Notes under the pieces: model-generated
Told to the model about the DNA's origin: nothing
What the model saw: only the letters and a program-made list of their open reading frames with translations
Database searches by the model: none
DNA from: Mobula birostris
Taxonomy: Eukaryota
Direction of reading: 5' to 3'
NCBI RefSeq assembly: GCF_030028105.1
Contig: NC_092387.1
Location: forward strand, 20,221,590 to 20,285,589
DNA: 64,000 bases
Shown: in pieces, positions 8,455-64,000 of the stretch
How positions within the stretch are numbered: the first letter of the stretch is position 1
How the letters are laid out: every line of letters begins with the position of its first letter
Position numbers and translations under genes: made by a program

Positions 8455-8892
8455 CCAGCTCCTTAGTATGAATATAGAATTCTCCAGCTTCCGGTAATTC
8501 CCTCCCCCTCCCTTCCCCTATCCCTATTTCACTCTGCCCCCTCCTCCAGCTGTCTATCACCTCCCTCATGGTTCCGCCTCCTTCTACTACCCATTGTGTT
8601 TTCCCCTATTCCTTCTTCACCTTTCCTGCCTATCACCTCCCTGCTTCTCCTCCCCCACTCCTTTACCTTTCCCCTTACTGGTTCTTCACCTGGAACCTAC
8701 CAGCCTTCTCCTTCCCACCCTCCCCCCACCTTCTTTATAGGGTCTCTGCCCCTTCCCGCTTCAGTCCTGACGAAGGGTTCCGGCCCGAAATGTTGACTGA
8801 TCGTTTCCACGGATGCTGCCCAACCTGCTGAGTTCCTCCAGTGTGTTGTGAGTGTTGCTTTGACCCCAGCATCTGCAGAGTATTTTGTGTTC
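8455..8892 (+). mobile_element. Penelope-like element 3' end / pLTR with hammerhead motif
   Basis: Pyrimidine-rich tract, hammerhead motif, then gatgctgcc..ctgctgagttcctccag..cagcatctgcag tail shared with GIY-YIG-linked copies. Confidence 0.8.
8761..8800 (+). ncRNA. Minimal type-I hammerhead ribozyme motif (best-preserved copy)
   Basis: tcagtc-CTGACGA-a-gggt(tccg)gccc-GAAA-t-GTT-gactga: 6-bp stem I, 4-bp stem II, intact core. Confidence 0.7.
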
Positions 8893-9815
8893 ACTGTTCT
8901 GGAGTCTCTTGTGAGAAAGAATCGCTCCAGCAGATTTAAGGATTCTTTGTTAATCGGTTCATTTAATGCTTTTCACTTATTGTATAAGCAAATTCTGATG
9001 GGGAAAAGGATGGTTGAATTGAAGTTGAGAAACTGATCAGTTGGTAAAGTTGCCCCTGGGCGCGGTGAGCTTTTTAGGCAAAAATAGGTGTAGAGGGGCA
9101 TGTGATGTAATAAAATATCCAGAAATTGATGCATCTTGAAATGACAGCTTGACACTTCTGGGGCACAAGTGAACACACACCTCGAATCATTAAGATGGAG
9201 ACCCAAGCTACTGCAGGTGCTGGAGTCTGGCCACACAGGAGATGGTTTGTTCCAAATCTTTTTAAATACTTCTTGATCAATGGGACACCAGCTGTTTTGG
9301 TGAATGTCACAATGAAGCTAAAATTCCACATTTCTCTTCGAATGCATCAGTCATCACTGCTACAACAATATCCAATTGCCCCCATTTACAGTTTTGCTGA
9401 GGACATTAGATGCACCCAGATTTCAGCAGGTAAGGCATCAGTGGCAGACTGACGGAGAATAACACCGGAATGTCATCATTGTATAGGAGATGTTTTCTAA
9501 TTTAGGTTTGGCTGACATCTGCCAGAAAGTTCCCTCACCAGTCAGGTTTGGAGACTGGACGGAATAAAGTAATTGGAATTAACTATGAGCTCATCATTTG
9601 TATTATGGAACCATCTTTCCCCTCACTGCTTGTGCCTGGAGAAATAATCCCTCTTTTATGGAAGGATATTTCAGTTCTGATTATTTGTTCTGTTTGCAAG
9701 CAGAACTTGTCACCAAAGTTGGAAGAGTTCTATTGGTTCACATAAACTTTATGGCTGCTTCTTGTACTATTTTGAACATACTTCACATGGGCTGTATTAC
9801 TTACAAACATAGCTA

Positions 9816-9950: not shown

Positions 9951-9959
9951 TAAGCTGTT

Positions 9960-10140
9960 ATTCCCTTCCCTCAATCTTATTCTGGTTTGTACCTCCTTCC
10001 TTTCCTGTCCTGATGAAGGGTCTCGGCGCAAAACATCGACTGTTTATTCCCCTCCATAGGTGCCGCCTGGCCTACTGAGTTCCTCCAGCATTTTGTGTGT
10101 TTTGTTCTGGATTTCCAGCACCTGCAAAACCCTGTGTTTA
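9960..10140 (+). mobile_element. Penelope-like pLTR fragment with degenerate hammerhead (10005-10042)
   Basis: ctgtcCTGATGAagggtctcggcgcAAAAcatcgactg plus shared tail. Confidence 0.75.
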
Positions 10141-11832: not shown

Positions 11833-12005
11833 GGATAAACTTAACATGACAATGGATGCAACTTTTTGAATGATATGGGGATATCCCTGCTTTGCATGAG
11901 TTATAAATGTTCTTATGGACTCAGTATTTAATAACTGATATCACACCTTGATACTTGGTCAGGCTTTCAGTCCTGCTGAGCCTTCTAGAGCTTTCTGAGG
12001 AGCAG

Positions 12006-14381: not shown

Positions 14382-17300
14382 CTGTGGAAAGAAATGATAG
14401 TGGGATGGAATCAGTTCTGATGGATAATGTTATAGTGACAAATCAGATCACAAAGAATTATAGACCAACACATGAATAAACCAGTCAACAGTTTTCTAAC
14501 CCCACACAATATTAACTCGTTGCTTAGGTAGAAACAATGATCTTCCTTTGATCAAGGCTTCTTTCTGCCATGTAATATTTAAATGGTCAGGTTATTTGTG
14601 GTGTTCAATAGGAATCAGATTGTTGTTTTGGGTGCATTGGGAGATGTGCAAAACTGTAAATCATGGGTCTTGAAATTGCTCACAATGATGCAGAAAGAAA
14701 GCAACAACAAAAGGCTGTTTTGGGAGGCGGCTGTCTGCATGGGACATAACAAACTGATCTAGATACCCACCCACAGGCTGAATTAAATGGGGAGGGAATG
14801 GAGATGAGTTAGTGGGCACTGGGTTCGGGTGTTTCGGTCTTCATTCTTATCACACTTTTACTTTAAACTTTTTTAGCACTATGATGTTGAGAAACATGAA
14901 TAAAATACTTATTTTTTTACAATAAGACCATATTTCAAAAGCCAAATCTGTGTTGATTCATTCCAATGGAAGGAGTTGGAAATCTGTTAGAAGATGCGTG
15001 AAAGAGTGGGTTCAGCGAGTCATGTATCTTAAAAACAGCCGTACATTAAAATGTTAAATTCCACTGGTGTGTGAGTCAGAATTTTTTCCAGGTAAGCTCC
15101 CACTGGGGAGTGTTGGATGATGAATTACTGCCACACCTTCTTGGACTTCTTTCCCAATTGTTTGTGACTGAAGAGAATGTTAGTTCCATTAATAGACTAG
15201 AGAGCACTAGGTCACCCTCTGTCAACCGAGCTCGGTGACCGCACTGCTGAAAATGACTGGGATTTATCTTTTGCATGTTATTTTTGTGTAACTATCTACC
15301 ATTCTCTGCAACATCTACAGAAGTTAAATCCTTCTGTTTGCGTCTTTCCATTCCCCAAATGCCCTGGCATTCCCTGCAGTCTTGCCTTATCTGAAACATC
15401 TCATAGACTCATAGAATAGTACAACCCAGTACAGGCCCTTCAGCCCACAATGTTGTGCTGACCCTCAAACCCTGCCTCCCATATAACCCTCCACCTTAAA
15501 TTCCTCCATATACCTGTCTGGTAGTCTCTTAAACTTCACTAGTGTATCTGCCTCCACCACTGACTCAGGCAGTGCATTCCACGCACCAACCACTCTCTGA
15601 GTAAAAAACCTTCCTCGAATATCCCCCTTGAACTTCCCACCTTAAAGCCATGTCCTTATGTCTTGAGCAGTGGTGCCCTGGGGAAGAGGCGCTGGCTATC
15701 CACTCTATCTATTCCTCTTATTATCTTGTACACCTCTATCATGTCTCCTGTCATCCTCCTTCTCTCCAAAGAGTAAAGCCCTAGCTCCCTTAATCTCTGA
15801 TCATAATGCATACTCTCTAAACCGGGCAGCATCCTGGTAAATCTCCTCTGTACCCTTTCCAATGCTTCCACATCCTTCCTATAGTGAGGCGACCAGAACT
15901 GGACACAGTACTCCAAGTGTGGCCTAACCAGAGTTTTATAGAGCTGCATCATTACATCGCGACTCTTAAACTCTTTCCCTCGACTTATGAAAGCTAACAC
16001 CCCATAGCCTTTTTTATCCACCTGTGAGGCAACTTTCAGGGATCTGTGGACATGTACCCCCAGATCCCTCTGCTCCTCCACACTACCAAGTATCCTGCCA
16101 TTTACTTTGTACCCTGCCTTGGAGTTTGTCCTTCCAAAGTGTACCACCTCACACTTCTCCAGGTTGAACTCCATCTGCCACTTCTCAGCCCACTTCTGCA
16201 TCCTATCAATGTCTCTCTGCAATCTTCGACAATCCTCTACACTATCTACAACACCACCAACCTTTGTGTCTGATGGGGTGTGAGAAAAAACACTTCACTG
16301 TTTAGGCCCAAGGGCTTGAGCTGAGCAAATAACTGCTTGTAGCCAGCCTCCAGAGTAAACTTCCTGCTGAACTGGAAGGATAATTAAGAAGGGGGTGAAA
16401 CTGTATAGAATTGACAACATAAAAATAAGCCATTTGGCCCTTCCAGTCTGAACCACAGTTTATGCTCCACTTAAGCCTCCGCCTATGTTTCTTTGAATCC
16501 ATCAGCATAGTGAGGTGGCACTTCACCTGTCAAAGGCCAGGGTCATCTACTGCAGCAGAGGCTCCCTGTGAGGCCTTTGCTACGTCAATGAGACTCCATG
16601 TAATTTGGTGGAATCGCTTCACCGAGCACCTTCGCTTCATTTGCCACAAAAGGAGGGATTTCCCAGTCACCAGCCATTTCATTTGACTTCCCATTCTCTT
16701 TCTGACATGTCAGCCCATGGCCTCCTCTATGATGAGGCCACACTCAGGTTGGAGGAGCAACATTTCATCTTCCGTCTGGGTTCATGAAACTAGGTGAAGG
16801 GGAGACGGGTGCGTGGGGTTCACCAACCTGATGGCATGAACATCAATTTCTCTAACCTACAGTAATTTCTCCCCCTTCCCCCCTTCTCCTTTTCCATTCC
16901 ACATTCTGGTTCCCCTCTCACCCCTTCTCCTCGCCATCCCATCACCTCCCTCTGGTACCCCGCTTCATTCCCTTTTTCCTATCGTCTGCTTTTCTCCCCT
17001 ACCAGATTTATTCTTCCTCAGCATTTGACCTCTTCCACCTATTATCCTCCAACTTCTTACTTCATCCCTCCCTCACACAGACACCATCCCCCTCACCTGG
17101 TTGCATCTATCACGTGCCAGCTTGTATTCCTCAACCTTCCCCTCCTTCTTATTCTGGCATTCTTTCCTGATAAAGGGTCTCGCACAAAACATCGACTGCT
17201 TAGTCCCCTGAATCGATGCTGCTTGACTTCCTTTTTGTACTTTCGGCATTGTGTGTGAGTATAGCCTCATATTCCCTTCAATGAATCCACGCCATTCCCA

Positions 17301-20300
17301 ACATCACCAAGTTCCATTGTCTCCCCACTTGGTATAAACAGTTTCTTCTGAATTCTATAACGGATTTCAAGTTGACTGTTTTATATTGGTGTTCTTTCAA
17401 AGTGGTCTTTGCTAAAGACATTGAAAAGCGGTGTAGAATGAGTATTTGCTTTGCTTTGATTTGATTTATCCATCTGCACGTCTCTAGCCACTTTCCTCTT
17501 TAAACAGCGATGGAACTCACCTGTCAAAGAGATCCTGACAGCAGTTTTGGAGGTTTGCACTTGTCCCATTAAAGGAGCTGCTATTGAGGTAACTTATGCA
17601 GTCCAAAGTCTCCCTGGGCACAAACAAAATCCCTACAAGACAGAAAGTAAAGATGAATCCTGCACCAAATAAGTAATCAGTTTTAACTCAGTTTTTTTTT
17701 CTCTCCACAGATGCTGCCTGACTTGCTAGTTATTTCCAACATTCTCTTTTAATTTTTCAGTCTTGGTCTGTCCTGTGTTTTGTGATATCACACCGCAGGA
17801 AATATTGTATCATTTCTTAATGCATGCATTACTAAATGACAATAAAAAGAGGACTGTGTGTCTTCATAATCTAATCTAATCTCATTCAGGTTTCCAGTAA
17901 ATCCTTGTTTCTATTTCCAGCAGGAATTTTTTTCTTTCTCAGAGCCTTCAATCTGAAACATCAACTGTTTCTCTCTCCATACTTGTTATGTGGCCTGTTG
18001 AATGTATCCAACATTTCTATCCCGGCTTTTGTCTTTTCCCTCTCCTCTGTCCCCATTCCCCTCTCCCTCAGACAGATCAACTGTGATTAACAAACCTCCA
18101 CAACCCTCCCACTCACTCTATCCCTTGTCCTTCTTGCTCTCTACCTTCCCACCCCACAGCTCAAAGCAGGTTTGACTTCCATCTAGTTCTGATGGTAGGT
18201 CATCGACCCAAAACCTCTTTCGACTCCACAGGTGCTGCCCACCCTGTATAGTATCTTTAGCATTTTGTCCTTTCTGTGAAATTTGATTTTCATTCCTTTT
18301 GTTTTGTCGGGTGGGGATAGACCTGCAGTGTGAAGTTCATGGCTGAATACCTGCGACGCATGCATTCACCAGCGAGGTGACGAACCCGGTGATGAGAGCT
18401 CGGATAACCACCTCCGCAAAGTCATTCTTGCGGTTTGGGGCCATGGCAGCTGCAGAGGGCAGGACAAGGGGATGGTGGAGAGAGCATGTGTAGAACACGT
18501 GAATTTACACCAAAGAACTTGGCATAATTACAGCACATTATAGAATTTTTAGTGATTTTTAAAGAATGGCCTCTGGTAATTAGATAATCAGCTTTAGTTA
18601 TTTCTTTGAGGGATAAATATTGGCCAGGATATGAAAAGAACACTCTGTCTTTTTAAACAGTACAAGGCATCTTTTCTATTCAGCTAAGAGGACAGAGAGA
18701 GCCTTGGCTCATGTTCTGTCTGGGTAGCCTCCAACCTGAAGGGATGAACATCGATTTCTCTAACTTCTAGTAATTTCTCTCCCCTCCCTCCTTCCCTCTT
18801 CTTCCTTGCCCCAGACTGGATATCCACTCACCCCTTCTCTTCGCCTCACCCACCTTCTGGTCCTCCTCCTTCCCTTTCCTCCATGGTCCACTGCCCTCTC
18901 CTATTAGATTTCTTCTTCTTCAGCCCTTTACCTTTTCCACCTGTCTCCTCCCTGCTTCCTACTTCATACCCCCTCCTTCACCCACCCATCTCACCTAGCC
19001 TCCAACTTGTGCTCCTCCCCCTCCCCCCACCCTCTTGTTCTGGCTCCTTCCCCCTTCCCTTCCAGTCCTGATGAGGGGTCGTGGCCTGAAATGCTGACTG
19101 TTTTTCGCTCTCCGCAGGTGCGCTTGACCTGCTGAGTTCCTCCATCATTTTGTGTGTATTGCTTGATTTAAAGTATCATCCGGAAAACATCTCTGACAAG
19201 GTCTTGACCTGAAACGTCAACTCTTCATTTCCCTCCATAGATGCTGCCTGACCTGCTGAGTTCTTCCTGGTATTTTGTGTGTTGCTACAAATTTACATTA
19301 TCTGCTATCCCTCTTGTGTCTCCACTCTTACAGCATAGTGTGACCTTGGCACTCTTTATAAGATTCTTTTTTTTGGAGCAAGGCCATCATTTATTGCAAG
19401 TCTCTACTTGCCCCTGAGAAAGATAGCTACCTTCTCGAACCACCGCAGTCCTTCTGGTGTTGTTAAGGAGAGTGTTTCAGGATTTAGACCTAGTGGCAAA
19501 GAATGACCAACAATATATTTCCAAGTGACAATGTTGAGTGACTTGAAGGGCAACCTACAAGTGGTGGGGTCATCAGACCATATTGCCAGGTTCAAAGGAG
19601 GTTCATGAAAATGATTCCAGGATTCAATGGCTTGTCATATGAAGAGTGTTTGATGGCCCTGGCCTGTATGCACTAGAATTCAGAAGAATGACCTTATTGA
19701 AACCTATCGAATGTGAAAGGCCTTGATAGAATGGATGTGGAGATGTTTCCTATGGTGGGAGAACATAGGACCAGAGGACACAGCCTCAGAATAGAAGAGT
19801 GTCTGGAGATGAGGAGGAATTTCTTTATCCAGAGAGTAGTGGATCTGTGGAATTTGTTGCCACAGGTAGCTGTAGAGGCCAAGTGATTACATATATTTAA
19901 GGCAGCGGTTGATAGAGTTTTGATTGGTCAGGGCATGGAGGGATATGGAAAGAAGGCAGGAAATGGGGGCTGAGAGGGAAAATTGGATTAGCCATGATGA
20001 AATGGCAGAGCAGACTGGATGGGCCAAAATGGCCGAATTCTGCTTCTATATCTTCAGCTTGTATTGTCTTTCTTGGCAGTAGATGTCATGGACTTGGGAG
20101 GGTGAGTAATGGCAGTGGAATTTATAGTTGGAGAGTCATTGAGAGATTCAGTTTAGAATCAGACCCTTGGGCTCATTGAGTTTGTGCCAAATATCAAGTT
20201 CCCATTTTTACACTAATCCCATTTCATCCCACATTCCCATCAACACCACCCCCCCCCCACAGATTCTACCTTACACCTACACAGAAGGGGCAATTTACAG

Positions 20301-26300: not shown

Positions 26301-29300
26301 GAGTCATGCACTTCAGAAACAGGCCCTTCGGCCCAACTCATCCAGGCTGACCAAGTTGCTCAACTGAGCCAGACCCACTTTTCTGAGTTGGCCCTTATCC
26401 CTTTGAATCTTTCCTATCCAGGTGCATGTCCTTTTTAAATCTGTTGTGTCTAATGTGACATGGGTAACGAATGTTGTGGCTCATGTGACGTAGTGTGCAC
26501 CCTTTCAGAGAATGTAGCATGTGAACAATTGCTCTGTGAATGCACTGCAACCAGTAGTCTGAAACAAGGTTCTAGAAAGTCAGTCAATGGGAGGGTCCTT
26601 GGGAGCGTTGCAGAATAGAGGAACCTAGGAGTACATGTACATGGTTCACTGAAAGTGCATTGCAAGTAGACAGGCTGGTGAAGGCTTCTTGGCATGCTGC
26701 CCTTTATCATTCAAGGCATCCAGCATGGAAGTTGGGTTGTTACTGTATATTGAGCTGTACAAGACGTTAGTGAGGACATATTTGGAATAATGTGTTCAGT
26801 TTGATTACCCTGCTATAGGAAAGATGCTATCAAGCTGGAAAGAGTGCAAAGAATACTTACGAGGATGTTGCCGGGACTTGAGGGACTGAGTTACGGAGAG
26901 TTCTTTCATTGGACAGTAGAATGAGTAGTGATCTTATAGAAATGTACAAAAAATGATGAGGGGCATAGGTATGGTGAATGCACATAGTCTTTTTCCCAGG
27001 ATTGGGGAATCAAAAATACAGGGTATAGGTTTAGGATGAAAAGGGAGAGATTTAGTTGGAACCTGAAGGGCAACTTTTTCACCTAAAGCAGGGGTTCCCA
27101 ACCTTTTTAATGCCATGGACACCTACCATTAACCAAGGACTATGTGGATCTCAGGTTGGGAACCCCTGCCCTAAAGGGTGGTCTTTATGTGGAATGAGCT
27201 GCCAGAGGAAGTGGTTGAGAGAGGGTTGTACATTATCAACATTTAGAAAGCTGGTTGGACAGGTACACGGATAGAGAAAGCTTGGAGGGTTAAGGGCCAA
27301 ATACAGGGCAAGTGGGACTAGATTAGATGGGAATCTTGGTCAGCATAGACCAGTTGGGCTGAAGGGCCTGCTTATGTGGTGGGTCAGTTTACTGTGTGTC
27401 TCCATTACTTGCTGCAGCTGTGTTCCCATCGGTTTGGACTGAGTGAATTTGTCGCTCTGTGACATGTGGTCGAAGGCCGAGTCTGTGTGGGCGGACCAGT
27501 CAGATTCATTGTCAGATGGCCTTAGGTGGAAGGTTGGACCATACCTGGAAACTGAGCTGGGGATAGTCCACCATTCCTCCAAACCAGGAGAGTGCTGCAT
27601 TCAAAAACGCCAGAATAGCTAAAAATGCAAGTAGGTTCACAGCAATGTTAGCAATCAGACCAACAGAGGCAGAGGCACCATTACTTGCAGCTTCTAGAAC
27701 ATTCTGTTCTTCACTGAAGAGGAATAAATAAGAAAAAAATGGTTACTCTCATTTTAGATTAAAGAGCATAGAAAATGAAACAATGGAAAATCGGTAAATT
27801 GAAAGGAATTTCTTCGGCCTTTCATAATGATACTAGCCACTGTTAGACTCGGTTCCTTTCCCTTTCTCTGGGGCCCTTTCTTTAGTCCTCACACCTCAAA
27901 TCTACAGCTTCAGTTCTGTCGAGCCTCTTGGCAACACTTAGTATGTTATTGGGCTTGGATTTTACAATTTCTAACTAATAAAACCCAAAGCAACATCAAG
28001 AAATGAAACACAAGAGGCTGCAGATGTTGGAATCTGAACACGTAATTTGCTGTAGATTGGGCAGTATCAGTGGGGGGAAGGAGGGTCAAAACCCTGTATC
28101 AGTCTTGATGCAAGGTTTCATCCCCAAACACTGGCAACTTCTTTCATCTCATGGATGCTCCCTGACTCACTGAGCTTCTGCAGCAGGTTGTAACACCAGC
28201 AAAGGTCTAAAATACAAATAGAAACGTTGAGCAGTTCAGGCGTGCCTTCCACTGATGGAAAGAGTTTCAGTCAGGCTGTCTGCTCCTCTCATTATTAAAC
28301 TCAGAGTGAGTTGACTCTGAGCTGGGAAGGTGTTTTAACTAAAATAAAAGAAAAGAAAATGCTGGAAACACTCAGCAGGTCAGATAGTATCTGTAGAGAG
28401 AGATTTAAATTTGAAGCCAAAGACAATCCATTGGAATATGTAGACTGAGCCTTTAGTCTATTTCTTTTTCTTCAGAGACTAAGTACTTCAGCATTTCCTG
28501 TTTTTATTTCCATCTTCCAGCGTCTGAGCTTCTTCCTTGATTTCTTCTGGGCGCCTCCTCTACTTAGGAAGCTGCTGCTTGAGCCAGTAAGCGAATAGCA
28601 AGTCCGCAAACTTGGTTTTAACTCCAGTGCTGGAGAGAGCACGTTGAAATCTCCTCCCTATTGTTAACTTAAAGCTGTATTAGCCAGGTGCAAGGTGAAA
28701 GCTTATGGTCTGGAAATCGGTCTTCAGAGTACCTTCATTGCAGTTAAACACCAAGTACTCTGTCTTTTTAGCGTTTAGGTGAAGTCCACCTTTATTGCAC
28801 TCAATTTCCACTTTTGTCAGTAGATGCTGTGCTTCCTCTATCTGGTCAGAGAGCAGGACTATGTCATCTGCAAAATCGAGATCTGTGAGTGTAACTGCTC
28901 TGACCCTTTTGGTTCACCCTGGTTTTATGGTAAAACCGAGCTTGTCATGATCTTTGGTAGCTTGATGCAGAGCGTAATCAAGGACGATTATAAAGATGTA
29001 GGGTGCCAGAGTGTCTCCTTGCAGCACACCAGCTAGGAGCTCGAACACTGCTGTTTCTCCGTCTGGTGATATAGCTTTCGCCATGGTCTTGATATAGCTG
29101 GACTCTGTTGCTCTCAGTAGATGGTCTGGCACTCCGTGAGCTTTCAGGATCTTCAGCATTTTACCTTGGTGAATGGAGTCAAAAGCTTTGCGAAAATCGA
29201 TGTAAGTAAGCATGGCTGGTAGGTTGTTCTTCTTGACTTCCTCGATGATCCTACAGAGAGCAAGTATTTGCGCTTCTGCTGAAAACCATTCTGATTGAAT

Positions 29301-44300: not shown

Positions 44301-47300
44301 AGGAACGTGGAGTCTGGGACCAAATAAAGGAGGAGGAGCTGGATTTTGGCTCCAGATTCCAGCATCTGCAGTCTCTTCTGTTCCCAAAACAGAGTAACCC
44401 ATCCCCTCATTTATGAAGCCCTGTGATCGATTCTCCATAATCAAATTCCTATCTTCATCACAGAACTGAAGAGGCTTTAATCGAAATTTCGACTGACCAC
44501 CTCCTGTGATGGTGAGTGACCTTGGTTAATGACTTGTTCTGATCTTTCTCAACTTGTTGCCTTGCTTTGAGATAGGTTCAGTCTGAGGTAACACTGCTCC
44601 TAGATGATATTGCACTTGTCAATTAAGTTGTAATTGAACAATCCCCTGCAATGACTTCTCTTCCTGATTTCCCTCTTTGGTTCTCCCTTCCTCCACCTCC
44701 CCCCCACATCACTCAATTTCTCAGCCACGCCGTGCAGAGATATGTTGTAAGATTCTGCTGATTTGATGATGACACGTAGTTCAGCCTCTTCACAGCCTCC
44801 CTCAGCTCCTGCCCACTGCAGTTTGTCAGTGCTTGCTCCACATTCGGTCCTCAATGTGTGGAGCATAGGAGAATAAAAGGGGATCTCATTGAAACCTACC
44901 AAATGTTGAAAAGCCTAGATAGGGTGGATATGGAGAGGATGTTTCCAATACTGGGGGGGTCTCGGACCAGGGGCATAGCCTCAGAATACAAGGATGTCCC
45001 TTTAGAGCAGAGATGAGGAAGAATTTTTTTACCCAACAGGTGGTGAATCTGCGGAATTCATTGCCACAGATGGTTGTGGAGGTCAGGTCTTTGGGTATAT
45101 TGAAAGCTGGGGTTGATTGGTTCTTGATTAGTAAGGGTGTAAAAGGTTATGGTTAGAAGGCAGGTGAATGGGTTTGAGAGGGATAATAAATCAGCCATGA
45201 TTGAATGGCAGAGCAGGCTCAATGGGCCAAATGGCCTAATTCTGCTTCTATGTTTTATGGTCTTATGGAAATTTCATCTGATCTTTACATCCTGAATTGC
45301 TCCAGGCAGGCAAAATTACAACATTTAAAAGGCATTAGGACAGGGTCGTGGATAGGAAAGATTTAGGGCAGGGGTTCCCAAACTTTTTTATGCCATGGAC
45401 CCCTACCATTGACCGAGAATGGAAACGGCCAAATGAGGGCATATGGGACTATTTTAATTAGGCAACTCAGACAAAGGGCCTGTTTGTGCACTGTGTAACT
45501 CTATGTCTCCATGACTCTTAAGACTTTATTTCCAAGTCACCTGGAACAAATGGGGACTCAAGAAAGTGCAGATGCTGAAACAACCTGGAGCAACAAACAA
45601 AGCACTGGAGGAACTCATGGGTCAGGCAGCATCTGTGGAGGGAATTGGACAGTTGACATTTCAAGTTCAAATCATTCATCTGTACTGAAAGGTAGAGGAG
45701 AGAGAGCTGGTATCAAGTGGTGAGGGGAAAATGGTGGAACAAGAGTTCCCTTCACCAGGATGTGCCTATCATTTTGCTAGTTCTTGCTCCACCTGTTTAT
45801 ACCTCTCTCTGATCTGTCTTTCAGTCCAGATAAAGGGTCTTGACACGAAACGTAGACTGTCCTTTCCTGCCTTAGCCATTGAGTTCCTCCAGCTTTTTGT
45901 CTGTTTCACCTAGAACAAACCTGATTCCCTGACCCAAGCACATTAACCCGATCATGTGAATACCCAGTATTTAAACTGATGAGTAAAGTTTTTGGCCTGA
46001 AATATTGGTCTGAAACTATCAGAACTTCCATAGTGTTTACAGCCTTTACTTATATACGCATTCTTTCAAAACTGCAATCACATGGAACTGCAATCCGTGT
46101 CCAGTTACAATTTGCTCAAATCTGTATCAATTTCTTCCCTCAGATTCCCTCCTTGAGTAGGTAACTCTGCGTTAAATATTTTCTTGGGTTAACCTGCAGT
46201 TGTGTCCTTCATTACAATTTAGGGACCAACTTGTTGTCTATAATGTTGTAAAACTTGGACCAGAGGCAATAGTTCATTCACCAGAATAAGAGGAAGTAGA
46301 AAACTGACCTGAAAGGCAAAAAGGCCATTGATCAACTCATTTCCAAACAGGAAGCTGGACCCTGCAGTTGTATAATTCAGAAAGGTCTGCAAGGAAAACG
46401 AAGCAAGTTATTGTTACAGCTGTAAGGCTTTCAGTGTTGATGTTGCTTCAGAACTCTTCTCAAAATAACAATAGATAAGGTGGAACAGTTCTGTTCAGGA
46501 GAGAAACCTTCCTTTGTTTGTTCGTCAGAGCTAACATCACCAGCTGACTACCTGCTGAGAAGGTCACGGCCATCCCGCCTCTGTGCCCACCACTTTCCTT
46601 GTGGTGGAAAGTAATCTCGCACTGTATTGGATAAGGATTCTTGGGGCTTAGACCCAGTGAATGGAATGAATGGCGATAGACTACATTTCAGAGTCAACAA
46701 GGTGTGAGGTTTGGAGTGGCAGTATTTCCATTGATAAATTGGTCTTGCTTTTCTAATTAACTGAGGCCGCAGGTTTACTAAACACTGATAAAGATGCTTT
46801 GGTGGGTTCATTGCTGATATTTAGTGATGAACACATTCAATATATTGTGAGTGGGAGGAGAGAATGTTCATACAAGCATGAACAAGCTGAAAACAATGCA
46901 GAACCTGGCTTTTGCACTTATCTTTCCTCAGCCCAATATTTGTATCTTATATTGTCTTACTCCAGAGGTGGGTTAGAGATACGTCTCTGCCAAAGGAGGT
47001 GTAAGGCTCTCCTTCCCTCTGCTAGCCTGCAGGTCACCCTTGGGCATCTGTTTAGTGCCTCCCCCGAACGGGGTCACGTGAAACCAAGGGAGAAGTTGGT
47101 GGATGGTCATATGAGCGGCTGGTGCATATCGCTAGTCCTAGTTATGCAACCACTGACGCCAGGCAGACAATCTCTGAAGAGTACTGATAATGGCTGGGTC
47201 GCCTGTCTTGTAAGACACTGCATAGAAGAAGGCAATGGCAAACCACTTTTGTAGAAAAATTTGGCAAGAACAATTATGGTCATGGAAAGACCATGATCGC

Positions 47301-50300
47301 CCACGTCATATGACACAGCACATAATGATGATGATTGTCTGACTAATTTTTTCTCCTCTTACCATTTCAATTAATCTATCACAAAGTATGAGCCCAGAAA
47401 TTTGATCACACATTAATCTTGTACCTCCTTCATTTAGCAGACAACAGTGTACAATGGAAGTGTTAAATTATGGGACCAGGAAGTGGGTTGTCCAGTAATA
47501 CTGTGACTCCTGTTTTTAGGAGATAACACTGAGCAATGAAAATGCTAAAATGATATGGAACTATTAAAGTACCAACAATAACATCGCATTGCTAGTGGAT
47601 GACACCCACACCTGAGTGAGATTCCTTCCCTCTGATCTCACCTGAACCTGGGTTCCAAGCCAATCAAACGCCTGTAAGCCAGGTTCCGTCCTGATGATAA
47701 AGATGCCAAGGACAAACTGTAAGCCCAGTCCCACAAACAGTGCTCGGCAGGATACCTGGGAGGTGGGAAGTGGCAGTTAGTACACACTTAGGCAATGTCA
47801 CTGAATGGAATTACGGCAAAATTCTCATTGAGACATACACACAAACTTAGTTGGCTGAACTATTTCAAACATTAGAGGATGGAGTGGTGTGCTGACAATG
47901 TTCGTTGTTTTGCAGGAAATTTTATTAATGATCTTATTGGTGAACAGATTGACACAGCCCATTATGTCTCTATTAACTCACAACTGCTCACAGCCTTGCA
48001 TTATTTTCTTTTTTGAGCATTACCAAGCTCTCTATTAACCCTGAATGATAACCAGTTTTTTCAAAAAAAAACATATGTCCCTATCTCAATTTCAAAATGT
48101 CTTTTGAGAACTAAGCCAGGTTAAACCTACTGCCAATAGATCTAGTTTCTTCTTGAATGATCACTGCCTCTCACAATTCCCAATTCATTGATTCTTCCCT
48201 TAACCACTCTGGTTGAAAGGGAACAGCTATAATTTGTCCAGTCTGTCCACATGCTGAAACTTCATCAAACAAATCTCCCCACCACCCTCTGGGATTTGTC
48301 TATGAGAGTGATGCTCAGAACTGGCTGATGACTATGAAATCATTTAATAGAAGTGTCGCATTTCCTTACGCTGATGTACCTATACAAACCTATGGATGCT
48401 TGAGTGTTTTAGGATCTTATCCTGACATCATTCATCAACGTACTTGTCTGATTTCCCGTTTTCCCAGCAATAATGGATGACTGACATTTAGAATTTGGAG
48501 GGAAAAAATGTGTCTGTTCATTGGCTGCTTTTGGCCCACTTGAACTAATCTTCAGGTGGTCCTAAAAATAGGGAGACAAGATCTAAGCCCGATCCTGGTA
48601 GGAAAGTAAGTCTCCTTCAGTACTGGGATCTAGCATTGTCTGGTGGAACCAGCTTCCAATCTTCATTACCCCAGAAGTGTTTCAGATGTGCACATAATCC
48701 TCCCTCTATGATGAGCCATGAAGCAGCACAACCGACAGTTATTTAGGGGTTAAATCAAAGCAGTTGTGAGCACGTCGTTTGGATGGTTAATATCCAGCTC
48801 TGGGCACTCATCACCTTCACTGCCATTGACGTGAACAGTTCAAGAAATGTTAAACATTTACCTTCTTCAACAAGCCAAGTGCTATATCTGTTCAACGCTG
48901 GAATGCTATGACTCTGATGAATGGTCACCAACCTGAAATGTAAACTCAGTTTTTCTTCCACAGATGCTGCCTGGCCTGCTGAGTACCTCTAGTATTTTCT
49001 TCTTTTCCCATCTCAAGAAGAAAGATGTGACGGCCATGATGTGGTTCCAGAGGAGATCAAAAAGATTGTCCTCGGGAATGAAAGGCTTACCTATGATGAA
49101 CATTTAATGTCTCAGGGAGTTTGGAAGGACACGGGTGGATCTTATTGGAACTGTCGGATACTGAGAAGCCTGGATAGAGGTGGAGGGTTGATGGGAGATG
49201 GTAGGAGATTCTAGGCCCCAAGGGTACAACCTCAGAATAAAAGGATGTCCTTTTAGAATGGAGACGAGGAGGATATTTTCCAGCCAGGGGGTGGTTAATC
49301 TGTGGAATTCATCAACATAGGGGGCTTGTGGAGGCCAAGCTTTTTGGTGAGTTTGAGGCAGAAATTAATAGGTTTCTGATTGGCAAGGGATTAAAAGTTA
49401 TGGGGAGAAGGCGGGAGAGTGGGGTTGAGAAAAAAATCAGCCATGATTGAATGGTGGAGCAGACCCAGTGGGCTAGGTAGCCCAATTCTGCTCCTATATC
49501 ATACATTTAGGAAGAATGTAATGTGTTGTCGTTTGAGAAGACAAATCAGGGTAACACATTCACAGTCAAAGAGAGAGCCCTGGGAGTGGATTTAAGTCCA
49601 TGGGTGTATTTAAGGCAGTGATTGATAGGTTCTTGATTGATAAGGGAGTTAACAGTTATGGGGAGAAATGGTACTGGAGAAAGTAACGATATTGAATGAT
49701 GAAGCTGACTCGATGGGCTGAATAGCCTGGTTCTGATTCTATACCTTATGGTCTGATAGTCTTTTATTTTAGATTTCCAGCATCTTCAGGATTTTGATTT
49801 TCACTTATGGGGAAGATTGTCTGGGTGCGTTTGTTGCAGATACATGAACCGGGTTAGAAGATGGAAGAGAGTGAACTCACCGCCAGAGGCTTTGTAGAGA
49901 AGATAAAGAGCAGGAAGATGAGTATACACAATCCTCCGAAGGAAATTAACTGCTCGGGTCTTTTTGAAGTATCAACGCCAATCCAAATAATTAATCCCGC
50001 CACAGCCAAAAAAGCAACAGTCCTGGCAGGAAGAAACCCCAAACCATTAGACCTTTCATCTGGTATTACTTTGACAGTTAATAAGGTTGAAGTGGGATGT
50101 GAGGAGTTCACTAAATGGCTTTACAAGGTGCTTGTATTTCGCTTACGCGCCGATGGTCGTGGGTTCGACACCTCACTCTAGTCTAGGCTAATGTACTGTG
50201 GGAGTTCTGCACTGTTGGAAGAGCAGTGTTTGGATGAGCAAATAGATCAGTTCTCTCAAGAGGTTGTAATAGATCGGTAGAGGATCAAGGGGTTCTCTCT

Positions 50301-53300: not shown

Positions 53301-56300
53301 GCCCTGTGCAAGAGGGCCAGGTTGCACATGAAATGACGGAGAACCAATATCCTGGCCGGGAAGATTGCTAATGCTACTCGGGAGAGTTTAAATTAGTTTT
53401 TCAGGGGGCTGGGAACTGGAGCACCAGGTCAGTGAGGGAAGGATCAGACTGAAAGGTAGATGTCTGGGAAAGTATTAAAATACCAGATATGATAGGTCAG
53501 ATAGTCTGATGTGTGCTAGGAGTATTATGGATAAAGGAGATGAACTTAGAGCATGGATCAGTACATGGTACTACAATACTGTAGCCATTACTGAAACTTG
53601 GTTGAGAGAGGGGCAGGAATGGGTGATTAATGTACCAAGTTTTTGAAGTTTTAGGAAAGATAGAGAAGGAGGTAAAAGGGGTGGGGGGATTTGCACTAGT
53701 AATCAGGGTCAATATCACAATTGCATTCACGGAAGACATAATGGAGGGGCCAGACACTGAGTCCATTTTGGTAGAACTCAGGAATAGGAAGGGTGCAATC
53801 ACACTAGTGGGATTGTACTATAGACCTCCCTCCCCTCTGTCCCCCATAGCCACTGGGACATTGAGGAACAGATATGTAATCAGATTAAAGAAATGTGTAA
53901 TAATAATAAAGATGTATAATGGGGGATTTCAACCTTCCTAATATAAACTGGGACCTTCTTAGTGCAAGGGGTTTAGATGGGGTAGAATTTGTTAAGTGTA
54001 CCCAGGAAAGTTTCCTAAATCAATATGTAGATGGTCCAACGAGAGGAGGGGCTGTACTGGGCCTGGTGTTGGGTAATGAGCCTGACCAGGTGACTGATCT
54101 TTCTGTGGGTGAACAGGGAGTGAGCAGAGACAACATTTCCTTAACTTTCAGGATAACTATAGATAAGGATAGGTATAGTCCTTGCAGGAGAGTTTTAAGT
54201 TGGGGTAGGGAAAATTATGAGGGCATTTGGCAGGAACTAAGAAGCGTTCATTGGGAAAACCTTTTTTCTGGCATGTCCACGTCAGACATGTGGAGGGTGC
54301 TTAAAGATCAATTGCACAGATTACAGGAAAGGTATGTTCCTGTTAGAAGGAAGGACAGGGATGGAAAGATTAGAAAACCTTGGATGTCCAGAGAATCAAA
54401 AAGTCTTTTTCTTTTTAGTCAAAAAGAAAAAGGAAAACTATGTAAAGCTTTAGAAGTTAGGATCAAACAAAGCACACGAGGAGCATAAAGATGCCAGAAA
54501 AGAACTAAAGAGGGGAAGTAGGAAAATCAGGAAGGGCCATGAAAAGTCCTTGGCAGGTAGGATTAAGGTGAACGTCAAAGTATTCTATACATATATCAAG
54601 AGCAAAAGGATAACTAAGGACAGGGTAGGGCCACTCAAGGATAAAGGAGGCAGAACATTTGCTTGGATGAGGAGAATGGGAGTGAGGTACTAAACGAGTA
54701 CTTTGCTTCAGTATTTACCAAGGAAAAGGATATGGAGGGACCAGAGATCAGTCATGAGTGTATATGTTAGGGTGTTGAAGAAGACAAAAAGAAGGAAGTG
54801 TTGGGCCCCCTAATGAGTATTAAGGTGGATAAGCCCTTAGTGCCTGATGGAATTTACCCCAGGTTATTGAAGAAGGCAAGAGACAAGATTGCTGGGTCTT
54901 TGACCGCTATCTTTGTGTCGTCTCTGGCCACAGGTGAGGTCCTGTTGTACTTCTATTTAAGAAGGAAAGAAGGAAAAGTCATGAGAACTCTAGACTGATG
55001 AGTCTTATGTCAGTTGAAAGGAAATTGCTGGAGAAAATACTTAGGGATAGGATATATGAGCATTTGGAAACCCATAGCCTAATGAGGGAGAAGACAGCAT
55101 GGCTTTTTGTGGGGCAGGTCGTGCCTTACCAACCTTAATGAGTTATGAGTTTTTTGTTAAGGTGGTGAGAAAGATTGATGAGGGTAGGGCAGTGGATGTT
55201 GTCTACGTGGATTTTAGTGAAATGTTTGACAAAGTCCCTCATGGGAGGCTAATCCAGAAGATTAAGGTGCATGGGGTCCATGGCAAATTGGCTGCTTGGA
55301 TTCAGAACTGGCTTGCACGTAGAAGACAAAGGGTAGTGGTTGAAGGGACTTATTTGAGCTGGAGGTCTGTAATTAGTGGATCTGTGCTGGGACCTCTGTT
55401 GCTTGTAACGTATATAAATGACCTGAATGAAAATGTAGATGGGTGGGTTAGTAAATTTGCGGATGATACCAAGATTGATGGAGTTGTGGACAGTGTAGAA
55501 GACTGGCTTCAAATATAGTGTGATATAGATCAGTTGCAGATATGGGCAGATAAATGGCAGATGGAGGTGAACCCAGGGAAATGTGAAGTGTTGCACCTTG
55601 GTAGGGCAAATGCAAGGAGACAGTACACTGTTAAGGGCAAGATCCTTAGTGGTATTGCTGAGCAGGGAGATCTTGGGATCCAAGTTCATAGCTCCTTGAA
55701 TGTGGGTACAAAGGTCGACAAGGTGGTTAAGAAGGATTATGGAACAATGAAGGGTCTCGGCCCGAAACGTTGGTTGTTTACTCTTTTTCATAGATGTTGC
55801 TTGGCCTGCTGAGTTCCTCCCGTATTTTGTGTGTGTTGCCTGGATTTCCAGCATCTGCAGATTTTCTCTTGTTTGTGATAGGAGGTAGAAAAGGGAGGTG
55901 CAGGATGAAGTTTCTCCCATTAGTCAAGAGGTTGTGCTGCAAACTTATAAAACTCTGGTTCAGCCACATCTGGAGTATTGCGTACAGTCTGGTTACCCTA
56001 CTACAAGAAGGACGTTGAAGCTTTGGAGAGGGGTGCAGAAGATGGTTATCAGGATGCTGGCTGGTTTAGAGGGCACGTGCTATCATGCGAGACTGGATGA
56101 ACTTGGGTTGTTTTATCTGGAGTGTCAGAGGCTGAGGGGAGATCTGACAGAGGTTTATAAGATTATGAGAGGCAATGATAGAGTAGACAGGGAGTATCTG
56201 TTTCCCGGGGCTGAGGTGTCTAATACTACAAGTACCTAACTTAGAATCACCTGTACTTATGTGACTTTCACTTTTGACTTTGATTAACGACTTTCCATGA

Positions 56301-58630: not shown

Positions 58631-58663
58631 CTGCAAAAGACAAGCACATAAACTTTCAACTCA

Positions 58664-60370
58664 AGAGAGTCTGCAGATGCTGCAAACCCAGAGCAACGCA
58701 CACGAAAAGGAGGATCTCTGCAGATCAGGCAGTAACTATGGAAATAAATAAATAGTCGACGTTTCAGGCCAAGCCCCTCCATCAGGACTGGAAAAAGAGA
58801 GGGTAAAAGCTGGAATAAGGAAGTGGGGGGAGGGGACAGAGTACAAGCTAGAAGGTGACAGGTGAAGACTGGTGGAGGAGGATGTAGTAAGAAGCTGGGA
58901 GGTAGAAAAGGCAAAGGGCTGGAGAAGAAGGAATCTGATAGGAGAGGAGAGTGGGCCATGGGAGAAAGAAAATGGGGAGGGGGCACCTGGGTGTAGGTGA
59001 TAGGCAGGCTGTGTCATAGTCTGGTATGGAAACACCAATGTACTTGATTAGAAAATCCTACAAAAAGTAGTGTTTTTCCCAGTCCAATATGGGTAAAGCC
59101 CTCCCCACTATTGAGCACATCTACCCCAAGTGTTTTTTCAGGAAAGCAGCATCTATTATCAGGAACCCCACCACCCAGGCCATGCTCTCTTCTCACTGCT
59201 GCCATCAGGAAGAAGATACAGGAGCCTCAGGACGCACACCACCAAGTTCAGGAGCATTTACTACCCCTCAATCATCAGGCTGTTGAACCAGAGGGGATAA
59301 CTTCACTCAGCTTCACTCGCCCCATTACTGAACCGTTCCCACAATGTCTGGACACACTTTTAAGGACTCTTCATCTCATGTTCTCAATATTTATTGCTTA
59401 TTTATTATTATTATTATTATTTCTTTTTTAATTTTTGTATTTGCACAGTTTGCTCTCTTTTGCACATTGGCTGTCCACCCTGTTGGTGTGGTCTTTCATT
59501 GATATTCTTATGGTTATTGGATCTATTGAGTATGCCCACAAGAAAATGAATCTCGGGGTTGTATATAGATATATTCTGCATGTACTTTGATAATAAGCTT
59601 ACTTTGTACTTTGAGGAGAAGAGAAGAGATGGGGGGGGTGCTGGAGTGAGGAACTGAAGAAAAGAGAAAGGATGAGGGGGGAAAATCACCATAAGTTGGA
59701 GATATTGGTGTTGATGCCATAAGGTTTGAGGCTCCTCAGGAAGAATACGAGGTGTTGTTCTTCCAAACTGAGAACAACCTCCATGTGGTAGTACAGGAGG
59801 ACATGGACCGATATGGGAATGGGGATTGGAGTTGGAATAGTTGCCTACTGGGAAATTTTGCTTTTTGCAGATAGAGCAAATGTGCTCAACAAGGCAGTCC
59901 CCCAATCTACGCAGGGTCTCACCAATGTAGAGGAGACTGCATTGGGAGCACCAGATACAGTAGATGACCCCAACACATTTGCAGGTGAAGTGTTGCCTCA
60001 CCTGGAAAGACCGTTTGGGTCTGAATGGAGGTGAGGGAGGAGGTGAATGGGCAGGTGTTGCACTTATTTGGCAGGGTTAAGTGCCAGCAGGGAGAATAGT
60101 GGGGAGGGACGAATGTACATTGGAATCATGGAGTGGGTGATCCCTGTGGAAAGTGAAGAGTGGGAGGGGTGAGGTAATGATGTGTTTGGTGGTAGGATCC
60201 TGTTGAAGATGGCAGAAGTTGTGGAGGATGATGTGGAGGCTCATGGGGTGGTAGGTGAGGACAAGAGGAACTATATCACTGTTAAGGCAACAGGAAGATA
60301 GGATGAGGGTGGATGTCCAGGAAATGGAAGAGATGTGGGTGAGGGCAGCATCAATGGTGGAAGGGAAACT
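58664..60370 (-). mobile_element. Penelope-like element, left arm of inverted pair (Rex-type insertion ~58995-59620); hammerhead 58753-58790
   Basis: PLVLTYHP; RQHFTC..VIYCIWCSQCSLLYIGETLRRLG (GIY-YIG). Confidence 0.88.
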
Positions 60371-63330
60371 CCTCCATTTCCCAAACATCTGCCCTCACCC
60401 CATCTTCCTGCTGCCCTAACAGGGATAGAGTTCCTCTTGTCCTCTCCTACCACACGAGCCTCTACATCCAGTATATCATTCTCTGCCATCTTCAACGAGA
60501 ACTATCACCAAACACATCTTTACCTTCCCCCAATCTCTGCTTTCCACAGGGATTGCTCCCTCTGTGATTCCCTTGTTCATCTGTCCCTTCCCACTAATCT
60601 CCCTCCTGGCATTTATCAGGCAAATGGAGGAAGTACTACACCTGCCCATTTATCTCCTGCTCCCTCACTTCCATTCAGAGCCTCAAGCAGTCCTTCCAGG
60701 TGAGGCAACAATTTGCCTGGGAATCTTTTGAGGTCATCTACTGTATCCAGAGCTCCTGATGCAGCCTCCTCTGCACTGGTGAAAACCAACGTAGACTGGG
60801 GGATGGCTTTCTCAAGCACCTTCTCTCTATCTGCAAAAAGCAGGATTTCCCGGTAGTCAACGATTTTAATTCCAATCCCCATTCCCATTCTGACATGTTG
60901 GCCCATGGCCTCCTCTGCTGCCATAATAAGGCCACTCTCAGGTTGGAGGTGCAACACCTCATATTCCATCTGCGTAGCCTCCAACCTTAAGGAATGACCA
61001 TCAGTTTCAAAGGTTTCAAAGGTACATTTAATGTCAGAGAAATGTATACAATATACATCCTGAAATTCTTTTACTTCACAACCATCCACAAAAACAGACG
61101 AGTGCCCCAAAGGATGAATGGCAGTTAAATGTTAGAACCCCAAAGTCCCCCCAGCTCCCCCTACCTACGCATAAGCAGCAGCAAGCAGTGAATTCCTTTC
61201 CCACACCAGTGAAAAAAGCAAAATACATTTACAGAAAGCTAAGAGAGATGAAGGTTTAGCATTACCTAACTTTAGATTCTATTATTGGGCAATTAATATT
61301 TGACACATGAAATTTTGGTTACTTGACCAAGATACACTATCCATTCCTAAATGGGTAGCATTGGAATTACAATCTGCTCAAGGTTATGCACTTGGCTCTA
61401 TTTTAGGTTCTTCTCTTCCTTTTGATTTGAAACGCCACAAACAGGTCTGTAACCCGATAGTTAAATATACCTTACGTATTTGGTTCCAATTCAGAAAATT
61501 TTTCGATCTTAACCAATTTGGGCTAGCGATCCCTATTTTAGGTAACATTTTTTCCTCCCTCTTTCATGGATCGTGCTTTTCAAATTTGGAAGACTAAGGG
61601 TATTTCACGGTTTTTGGATTTATTTTTAGATGGTTCCCTTATGTCTTTTGAACAATTATCTAATAAATATATTTTACCAAGAATACATTTTTTTAGATAT
61701 CTCCAAGTTAGAAATTTCCTAAGTACTATACTTTCTTCCTTTCCAATTCTCCCTCCTACATATATTTTAGATACTATAATTAACCTTAATCCATGTCAGA
61801 AAGGTGCAACGGCTATTATTTATAATATTATTATGAAACTTAGGAAAGCTCCATTTGATAAGATTAGGTCAGATTGGGAACAGGAATTGGGTTTTATTAT
61901 TTCGGCGGATGACTGGGAGCAGATTTTACAACTAGTCAATACTTCCTCTATCTGTGCTAAATTCAATTTAAAGTTGTCCATAGAGCACATATGTCCAAAG
62001 ATAAATTAGCTCGTTTCTATTCTCATATTAATGCTTTTTGTGATAGATGTCAGGGGCAGATAGCCTCTTTAACTCATATGTTTTGGTCCTGTCCTACTCT
62101 GGAAACTTTTTGGAGAGACATTTTTAATATTATCTCAAAGGTATTGAATATAGATATCTCTCCTCATCCTATTACTGCTATCTTTGGATTACCTAAAATT
62201 GCCAGTAATCTTTCTCCTTCAGCCCGTAGAATGATTGCATTTTTTACTTTAATGGCGAAAAGATATATTTTACAACATTGGAAAGAGGCTAATGCTCCAA
62301 CTACGTTTTTTTGGTTTTCCCAGATGATATTATGCTTAAATTTGGAGAAAATTAGAAGTAATCTTTATGATTCTTCAGTTAAATTTGATCAGACCTGGAG
62401 ATCTTTTATTCAACATTTTCATTTAATGTAATTTTTTTTTCTCTCAGTCCATATTTATATTCCCTTCTTGTTTTTTTTTAACTGTTTTTAATGGAGGTCG
62501 GGTTTGAGGACGTGATTTTAAGTTCTTTAACTCTACTTGTTTCCTAGTTAGCCCATTGCTTTGCTTTGCTTTTTAGTTTATTTGCACGGTGGGTTTTTTT
62601 GGGTTTTTTTTTTCTTTTTCTATTGATATGTATAAAAATTAGTATACTATTATATTACCTTGTTATTTTATGTTTAAATTGCACTGTTTGTATTAATTTT
62701 TTCTGTATTAATATTTCCTGTAATATATTATATTCTAACAGTGTATTAGTGCCTATATGGTTTACCTTCTGTGTACTTATTCAATAAAAAGATTTAAAAA
62801 GAAAAGAAAGAAAAAAAGCATCAACGCCCCCCACCGAGCACTCAAGTGTGCAGCAAAGCATCAATAAACACACAGACTTGCAGTACCCGATAATTCAACA
62901 TACCACAGGCTCTCTCTCTCTCCCTAATAAGGGAAAAAGCTGATTTCACCAACTTCTGGTACTTTCCCCCCTCCTCCTTCCCTCTTCTTAGTTTCATGCT
63001 TGGACCTTACCTTTTCTGTGTTCTTCACCTGCCTATTACCTCCCTCTGGTGCCCCTCCTCCTTTCCTTTCTCTCATTGTCCTATCAGATTCATTAATCTC
63101 CACCCCTATCCCTTTTCCACCTACCACCTTCCAGCTTCTTACTTCATCTTCACCCCTCCCACCTATCATGTTTTAACTTGTACTCCTTCCGCTCCCACCA
63201 CTTTCTTATTCCTGGCTTCTACCCCCTTCCTTTCCAATCCTGAAGAAGGATCTCGGCCTGAAACATCGACTGTTTGTTCATTTCCAGAGATGTGGCCTGA
63301 CCTGTGGAGTTCCTCTAGCATTTTTGTGTT
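60367..63330 (+). mobile_element. Penelope-like element, right arm of inverted pair (interrupted ~61005-62938); hammerhead 63235-63272
   Basis: DRVPLVLSYH..VIYCIQSS..GENQRRLG..EVQHLIFHL; resumes at ~62940. Confidence 0.85.
61221..62811 (+). mobile_element. 5'-truncated L1-clade LINE (ORF2 C-terminus with CCHC finger)
   Basis: GLALPNFRFYYWA, FFRYLQVR, CDRCQGQIASLTHMFWSCP; A-rich tail; TSD aaaaaagca (61212-20 / 62812-20). Confidence 0.92.
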
Positions 63331-63970: not shown

Positions 63971-64000
63971 ATAGAACATAGAACAGTAATGAACAATATG

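Follow-up and report, generated by a model that had tools for sequence, protein, structure and literature searches.

Minimal type-I hammerhead ribozymes (min-HHRs) are found in both pseudo-long terminal repeats (pLTRs) of Penelope-like elements (PLEs), mostly as solo copies left by truncated elements and with some pairs on opposite strands (PMC4209133). Their helix I is short, A9 and G10.1 are separated by an extra base, G10.1 pairs with C11.1, and the 15.2-16.2 step is palindromic and lacks loop 3; motifs of this type have low activity even as dimers, and solo min-HHRs did not cleave when assayed in vitro (PMC4209133). Cleavage of PLE hammerheads takes place in dimers (Lunse et al. 2016, as cited in PMC6765202), and the role of hammerheads for Penelope elements is an open question (PMC8557442). 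In PAc, a Poseidon element of Anolis carolinensis, the hammerhead is protein-assisted and dispensable for insertion, reverse transcription starts inside the RNA, and a tail of 30-40 nt is delimited by two 3'-end positions (Frangieh et al. 2024, PMC11167929). Here we analyze 64,000 nucleotides of the ray Mobula birostris (NC_092387.1, positions 20,221,590 to 20,285,589; hereafter the window), in which an earlier note had read a dispersed family of min-HHRs within PLE pLTRs. That reading is correct: the motif of the window is the published one (PMC4209133). The motif type is thus known already in PLEs, and the family described here is a new, very abundant member. We consider it highly probable that the repeats are 5'-truncated and short insertions of an endonuclease-positive (EN+) PLE, likely of the Neptune type, with a reverse transcriptase (RT), a C-X4-CxxC linker, a GIY-YIG endonuclease and a pLTR of ~370 bp that carries a min-HHR, and that nearly all dispersed copies are neutrally decaying relics.

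The family shares with the published min-HHRs every structural trait listed above, the location in both pLTRs, the prevalence of solo copies from truncated elements and some pairs on opposite strands. It differs from them in its helix II, which has 4 bp as against 7-8 bp in the Schistosoma family of PMC4209133, and in its abundance: ~0.8 million family matches and tens of thousands of intact cores, compared with descriptor matches of ~4,000 in the coelacanth and ~9,000 in Xenopus, obtained by different methods. A subfamily with C at core position 6 (C6) and a youngest subfamily mostly with U at 11.1 (U11.1) are further features that set it apart from that study, whose searchable supplement file contains no shark or skate term. 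Like PAc, the ray element has a hammerhead in the pLTR, two 3'-end positions and hardly any ends at the cleavage site (in PAc, of RNA or cDNA; PMC11167929). In contrast with PAc, it has a linker of the CX2-5CxxC (Neptune/Nematis) type, and its first in-frame ATG lies ~165 nt below C3 in the full-length locus L055, whereas the PAc open reading frame (ORF) begins inside the ribozyme. The element also resembles canonical EN+ PLEs of the Neptune clade (Craig et al. 2021, PMC8557442), which have an RT, a Zn-finger-like linker, a C-terminal GIY-YIG domain, pLTRs with a hammerhead, inverted 5'-truncated partners and an optional tail.

Hammerhead motifs of the window

The anatomy proposed in the earlier note was borne out. 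From 5' to 3', the motif consists of AGUC, C3UGANGA9, one additional A, stem II (GGGU/GCCC, loop of 4 nt), G12AAA, C15.2 G16.2, U16.1, H17 and GACU, so that AGUC/GACU forms a stem I of 4-6 bp, stem II has 4 bp and stem III is a loopless ACGU. The CUGANGA/GAAA core with U16.1 and H17 is the majority state in classes A, B and C of the family, while class D has C6; all four classes have C15.2 and G16.2 as their majority letters. Helix I, helix II with G10.1-C11.1, the extra base after A9 and the absence of loop 3 are all present. In a B-type sublineage (L061, L066, L079, L165), the 3' strand of stem I reads GACC, which leaves only 3 contiguous pairs before a mismatch.

A profile built from copies of the window and from ORF-linked copies has 16 distinct matches in the window (of 17 rows, one is the shadow, on the opposite strand, of the copy at 28095), and its best match in 10 shuffles plus the reversed window has E 1.5. 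The hammerhead is covered at least partly by 14 of them, the other 2 being tails only. All eight copies previously listed are among these (8761+, 10005+, 17167+, 19063+, 45822+, 55748+, 58753- and 63235+); further copies lie at 17949+, 18185+, 19192+, 28100+, 45687- and 48914+, and tail-only pieces at 17698+ and 28404-. The core or stem III is changed beyond wobble, or truncated, in 7/8 of the listed copies (Table 1), and a single one of the 16 (8761) passes the relaxed descriptor and none the strict one. Of the full core and GUU site ascribed to the 8761 copy, the catalytic letters are kept, but stem III is AUGU, with a U.G wobble and without the ACGU palindrome.

The association with GIY-YIG remnants also held: a sense ORF end lies ~300 nt above the motifs at 17167 and 19063, the last ORF codons lie above 8761, and a remnant is found above 58753, across a ~600-bp insertion of other repeats that interrupts the 3' untranslated region (UTR) of that copy. 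The motif at 63235 instead precedes a degraded ORF that continues beyond the window end (RT core, amino acids up to 865), and probably belongs to the 5' pLTR of an old, degraded element whose RT extends past the window. The copy at 8453-8892 is flanked by a 19-bp direct repeat (17/19 identical, at 8434-8452 and 8893-8911), likely a target-site duplication; such a duplication was seen for 1/6 window copies examined, plus a 7-nt match of doubtful meaning. The Rfam scan of the window gave no hammerhead family and 8 weak matches (up to E 5). The degraded GIY-YIG piece escaped Pfam in a run on 10 ORFs of the window; its identity came via intact relatives. The head-to-head inverted PLE ORF fragments at 59627-61020, centred at ~60370, are the source of weak miRNA-like Rfam matches at 60293-60428.

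The carrier element

Used as a query, the GIY-YIG-like peptide encoded at 59810-59995 returned 91,575 first-look candidates, of which 150 were scored. The motif lies near the ORF end in 20/20 long-frame loci examined, and in each of the four tail classes C3 follows the sense ORF end by 190-440 nt. L055 is a complete unit, with two 370-bp direct repeats, each carrying the motif, 3.72 kb apart around the ORF; the hammerhead is therefore located in both pLTRs of one PLE. L063 has an open frame of 1079 codons, the N-terminal ~80 of which derive from an inverted junction. The frames of L063 and L051 are single ORFs with an RT as well as a GIY-YIG domain at the C-terminus, whose motifs are visible in the sequence and which Pfam matches below its curated cut-offs (RVT_1 E 6e-6, GIY-YIG E 9e-4); a sequence search of PDB with the L063 frame found nothing. 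Between RT and endonuclease, L063 has the linker CKRNKCYTC (C-X4-CxxC), of the CX2-5CxxC type common to Neptune and Nematis (PMC8557442). The pLTR direct repeats, the inverted 5'-truncated partners and the 30-40-nt tail are EN+ PLE traits as well. The carrier is likely of the Neptune type, a clade placement based on the linker motif and host range.

Copy number, decay and tandem arrays

We sampled 100 random 10-kb stretches (1 Mb) from 13 large contigs of the 4.01-Gb genome, whose repeats look like those of a cartilaginous fish, and found 201 family matches, against none in shuffled and none in reversed controls. Bootstrapping gives 166-239 matches per Mb, or ~0.7-1.0 million genome-wide (~0.8 million) if the sampled contigs are typical. 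The motif is spanned by 138/201 matches, i.e., 138 per Mb or 1 per 7 kb, close to the 1 per 8 kb guessed from the window. The exact intact 35-mer occurs 5,626 times in the genome (control, 0). Seven near-identical PLE-end loci (L384-L390; contig C17, 106-111 Mb) point to a segmental or tandem duplication, to which five further matches of this pattern, on small contigs, may be added.

The very large ribozyme reservoir that the earlier note drew from this density is another matter. Only 22/201 matches have a core that is intact by the relaxed descriptor and 8/201 by the strict one (scaled genome-wide, 55,000-134,000 and 14,000-63,000 cores), and same-strand dimer partners are scarce. The lethal change G12A, which removes the general base (PMC6155905), is as frequent in the old class (28/85) as the neutral G>A change of the loop (28/82), and CpG decay is symmetric, with C15.2U in 34/88 vs G16.2A in 39/89 and C17U in 39/91 vs G1.1A in 37/88. 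Decay of the motif after insertion looks neutral, and a large pool of active ribozymes in the host is not borne out by these data.

The masters of the subfamilies present a different picture. Between the four subfamily majorities, 1/11 core, 4/7 free and 37/91 flanking positions differ, and none of the 18 stem positions does (core and stem 1/29 vs free 4/7; Fisher p 0.003). The masters kept core and stems, which is the pattern expected if they kept the hammerhead. Covariation of the stems across copies, named beforehand as a check, was not seen, and it is uninformative here because the stems are identical between the majorities.

The short copies had also been taken for ORF-less, retrozyme-like units. 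Non-LTR retrozymes are likewise ORF-less and pLTR-derived and have a type-I hammerhead, and they are defined by tandem units, each with a complete hammerhead (10.64898/2026.07.22.740005). In contrast, the ray copies are solo or head-to-head, with ragged 5' ends: none of the 39 tandem arrays (period 40 or more) in 1.06 Mb contains the family, although rare arrays elsewhere are possible, head-to-head pairs within 300 nt account for 54/201 copies, and same-strand pairs within 1 kb in which both motifs are spanned number only 10. Nothing in the 1.06-Mb sample corresponds to the retrozyme definition, and the short copies, colinear with the ORF end, come from the autonomous element as its truncated or short products.

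Variant cores of expanded subfamilies

Class D was delimited by letters of the tail, which lie outside the motif, and has C6 in 7/10 random copies. When 30 copies were picked by the D tail alone, the 18 readable cores had C6 in 13, A in 4 and U in 1 (by-eye count). Conversely, 11/15 C6 loci carry the D tail vs 0/15 loci with G6 or U6 (Fisher p 5e-5). C6 occurs in 11/136 random copies that cover this column, which corresponds to the order of 40,000 copies, mostly decayed. Several D copies are linked to their own GIY-YIG end; subfamily D loci with a C6 core, their own 3' UTR and tail, and a linked GIY-YIG include L177, L180, L182, L191, L193, L206, L212 and L226. In a tree of 47 copies, A and B are well-supported clades, and next to A lies a weakly supported (40/94), unresolved star of C6 copies. 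This tree thus backs neither a monophyletic C6 group nor a reversion from C6 to A6.

The second variant is U11.1, present in 44/57 young class A copies, including 22/22 with the GCAC tail variant. Since U11.1 is frequent in young copies but G12A is rare (3/57), U11.1 was inherited from masters, beyond CpG decay. In the youngest lineage (L055, L063, L064, L072 and other young class A loci), U11.1 is found in both pLTRs, where it gives either a G10.1.U11.1 wobble or a shifted register in which the extra A pairs with U.

The A6C change is known from the hammerhead of phage Bcep176 (PMC3088659) and goes with low Mg2+ activity and a preference for Mn2+ (PMC7151607). The two cases resemble each other in having C at position 6 of an otherwise consensus core, and differ in that the former is a single phage ribozyme whereas the latter is a whole retrotransposon subfamily in a minimal, dimer-type setting, known from sequence alone. 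Literature searches on A6C, CUGCUGA, PLE strong-stop copies and shark Penelope hammerheads retrieved no PLE C6 variant among titles and abstract starts, while Lunse et al. 2016 may list C6 or elasmobranch examples. The A6C burst and the dominance of U11.1 suggest that efficient self-cutting is likely needless for jumping. The variants that each founded bursts here, namely the consensus, U11.1, GUU with a UCCG loop, and C6, are directly comparable.

Copy ends and predicted folding

Positions are counted relative to C3. In the random sample, the 5' end falls at -10..+4 in 52/185 copies and at +27..+30 in 2/185, with the proviso that old copies may lose upstream alignment artificially. We also took 100 young copies with only the tail as criterion (108 rows less 8 duplicates, which were discarded manually). 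Their 5' ends lie past -400 in 24 cases, in the 350 nt from -400 to -51 in 22, and between -15 and +9 in 36 (18 of them at -5..-1); one is at the cleavage bond. At -4, these 5' ends coincide with the words YCAGTCC/TTAGTCC, which agree with the initiator consensus YYANWYY. In Drosophila, the pLTR of Penelope contains an internal promoter with initiator and downstream promoter element (PMC2377424). The 3' ends form two groups ~33 nt apart, at +82..105 (61/108 rows) and +114..139 (46 rows); in the Anolis element, such a tail marks internal RT starts (PMC11167929). We infer an RNA that begins at the front of stem I, with the short copies as complete cDNAs of its first 100-130 nt. The copy ends predict an RNA start at -4, with a second site near -9, and RT starts at ~+94 and ~+127. 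Stalling of the RT at the hairpin was rejected as a cause of the 5' pile-up, on the reasoning that it would leave ends near +31, not -4.

In five of six natural copies, the monomer is predicted to fold as a rod in which G5-A6-N7-G8 pair with 15.2-17 and the core is hidden. For A6 copies, the active dimer is computed to be 2.9-10.5 kcal/mol less stable than two monomers, in models that omit the tertiary energy of the core. A C6 copy loses the rod pairing, and its active dimer is only 1.1 kcal/mol above two monomers. The predicted rod fits the low in vitro activity and the protein dependence reported for such motifs.

Competing explanations

Putting these observations together, the EN+ PLE would be transcribed from the A of the 5' stem I strand or just before it, and its reverse transcription would begin inside the RNA, ~+94 or +127 from C3, as in the Anolis element. 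The 5' pLTR as template would yield the short inserts of ~100-130 nt and the 3' pLTR the longer truncated ones. The motif would be kept by selection in master elements only, would cut slowly, either as a dimer or with the element's protein, and the usual template for insertion would be uncut RNA. Efficient cleavage is probably dispensable for jumping, because C6 accompanied the spread of one subfamily and U11.1 mostly that of the youngest. Several points weigh against this account. In the old class, mismatches outside CpG at A (29/398 in the core vs 34/320 in the tail), G and U are slightly rarer in the core, and those at C more frequent, so that a small effect is possible. The genome offers no compensatory change, the structure being backed by conservation, which could also serve a promoter or a protein-binding site. 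The start of the RNA is read from DNA ends only, the young 100 copies are the first on one contig and no random draw, and the linker is of a type that Neptune and Nematis have in common. Finally, genome-wide, insertion joints at +28, the cleavage bond, number 154 vs 35, 90 and 99 at +26, +30 and +32. This 1.6-1.7-fold excess over +30 and +32, for which microhomology and a base composition that differs between the patterns are confounds (and the +26 set includes segmental duplicates), could record real cleavage, as a minor class at best. Among 30 inspected joints at +28, 23 are inverted, 5 direct and 2 at unique flanks, and a microhomology of 3-4 nt (GAC/GACT) explains 9, all inverted; of 20 inspected at +32, 16 are inverted, 9 of these at the GTAC palindrome.

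The same joints also speak for the view that cleavage is a regular, needed step of the master cycle, for example to release unit-length RNA from read-through transcripts, with C6 and U11.1 cutting well enough given protein or metal. The retention of core and stems while flanks diverged, and the removal of the predicted inhibitory rod by C6, point the same way. Nonetheless, copies start mainly at the front edge of the motif and rarely at the bond, insertion of the Anolis element in vitro is unaffected by catalytic mutants (PMC11167929), and C6 strongly lowers Mg2+ activity in other hammerheads (PMC7151607), which makes this view rather unlikely. We find it less probable still that the motif is no longer a ribozyme here and is kept as a promoter or initiator sequence or as a protein-bound hairpin. 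The initiator-like words at the 5' ends, the inactive rod predicted for the monomer, the lack of covariation and the fixation of C6 in one subfamily are consistent with this idea, whereas the differences between subfamilies within the motif fall mostly at positions that are free in hammerheads (N7, loop II, H17), all 15 core letters except position 6 are hammerhead consensus, and the homologous Anolis motif cuts in vitro with protein (PMC11167929). A large active reservoir, in which dispersed copies cut host or element transcripts and short copies are an independent retrozyme-like family propagated via circular RNA, appears very improbable. It could draw on the scaled core counts, on the many copies without an ORF, and on the derivation of retrozymes from PLE pLTRs and their presence in one cartilaginous fish (10.64898/2026.07.22.740005). 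Against it stand the absence of arrays, the few same-strand pairs, the neutral decay of the core, the ragged short copies with the same subfamily tails as ORF-linked ones, and the lack of in vitro cleavage of solo min-HHRs (PMC4209133).

Returning to a slowly cutting motif kept in the masters of an EN+ PLE, we tentatively propose, as a possibility that may well turn out otherwise, that a vertebrate Penelope subfamily with fixed C6 at tens of thousands of copies would form an allele series made by nature, of which the U11.1 lineage is another part. Retrotransposition in vivo would then either do without cleavage or, with C6, accept poorer chemistry in return for better folding, since the rod is broken. 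Stem I would moreover supply the transcription initiator in its 5' strand, so that the ribozyme stands at the very start of the mRNA and its cleavage would remove the cap as a switch.

Features of the window

Table 1. Family copies and associated features in the window. Substitutions refer to the motif consensus.
Position	Strand	Feature	Motif state and support
8453..8892	+	Subfamily B PLE copy, truncated at its 5' side; comprises the final ORF codons (MNIEFSSFR*), 3' UTR, hammerhead motif and tail	440 bp; 89% identity to ORF-bearing L051 over 406 nt; translation
8761..8800	+	Type-I min-HHR motif with C3 at 8767, stem I of 6 bp and GUU site	C15.2U (U15.2.G16.2 wobble), U17; sole window copy passing relaxed descriptor
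9965..10135	+	Short PLE end, class C, motif at 10005	G12A, G16.2A
16540..17265	+	PLE 3' end: GIY-YIG remnant (16542-16862), 3' UTR, decayed motif 17164-17200 (17167 copy)	G8A, G12A, G16.2A; tblastn E 5e-17
17949..18015	+	Old fragment: 3' half of motif and tail
18179..18268	+	Short copy, old	Heavily decayed
18690..19188	+	PLE 3' end: ORF end (18699-18767), 3' UTR, decayed motif at 19063	C11.1U, C15.2U, U16.1C
19192..19293	+	Another short copy, following the 19063 copy in head-to-tail order (partial tandem)	Broken core
28095..28193	+	Short copy, old	Heavily decayed
28354-28404	-	Tail-only piece
45559..45728	-	Old copy in head-to-head arrangement with that of 45822
45753..45914	+	Old copy containing the 45822 motif	U4A, G8A
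48914..49035	+	Old short copy, 5' end at C3	Decayed stems
55748..55872	+	Short copy truncated within the core (begins ~+4 from C3)	Without C2.1-G5
58669..60385	-	PLE 3' part: RT-thumb to GIY-YIG remnant (60385-59692), split 3' UTR, motif ~58791-58752 (58753 copy, C3 at 58785), tail	A9G, C11.1U; tblastn E 3e-57
60370..61020	+	Inverted 5'-truncated partner copy, same ORF region as 58669-60385, head-to-head at ~60370	Inverted repeats I1, I10, I11; tblastn E 6e-48
62941..63335	+	Likely 5' pLTR of degraded old element: 3'-UTR piece, motif at 63235, tail	C11.1U, G16.2A
63661..64000	+	Start of the broken ORF of the 62941-63335 element	Amino acid 361 on (L063 numbering)

The window also contains repeats of other kinds. 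On the minus strand, 29153-31170 and 28914-29306 form a relatively young non-LTR element, with a 524-aa open frame for an APE-type endonuclease (weak Exo_endo_phos_2 match) followed by RT fragments. A broken long interspersed element lies at 3134-5629 (+; Pfam RVT_1 and ALKBH8_N), with kin fragments at 56822-57364 and within the insertion mentioned above (~59100-59270). Broken frames of a gypsy-like LTR retroelement occupy 36817-40483 (+), where RT, RNase H and protease-like text can be recognised by eye, and a Tc1-like transposase fragment is found at 13172-13654 (+; HTH_23 and HTH_Tnp_Tc3_2 matches). A weak U6 snRNA-like match at 12000-12095 (+; 21.8 bits, below the gathering score) is possibly a pseudogene fragment. 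Finally, two inverted, near-identical pieces (89-98%) located 17 kb apart, at 17749-17847 and 34972-35069, are probably the ends of a young DNA-transposon-like repeat.

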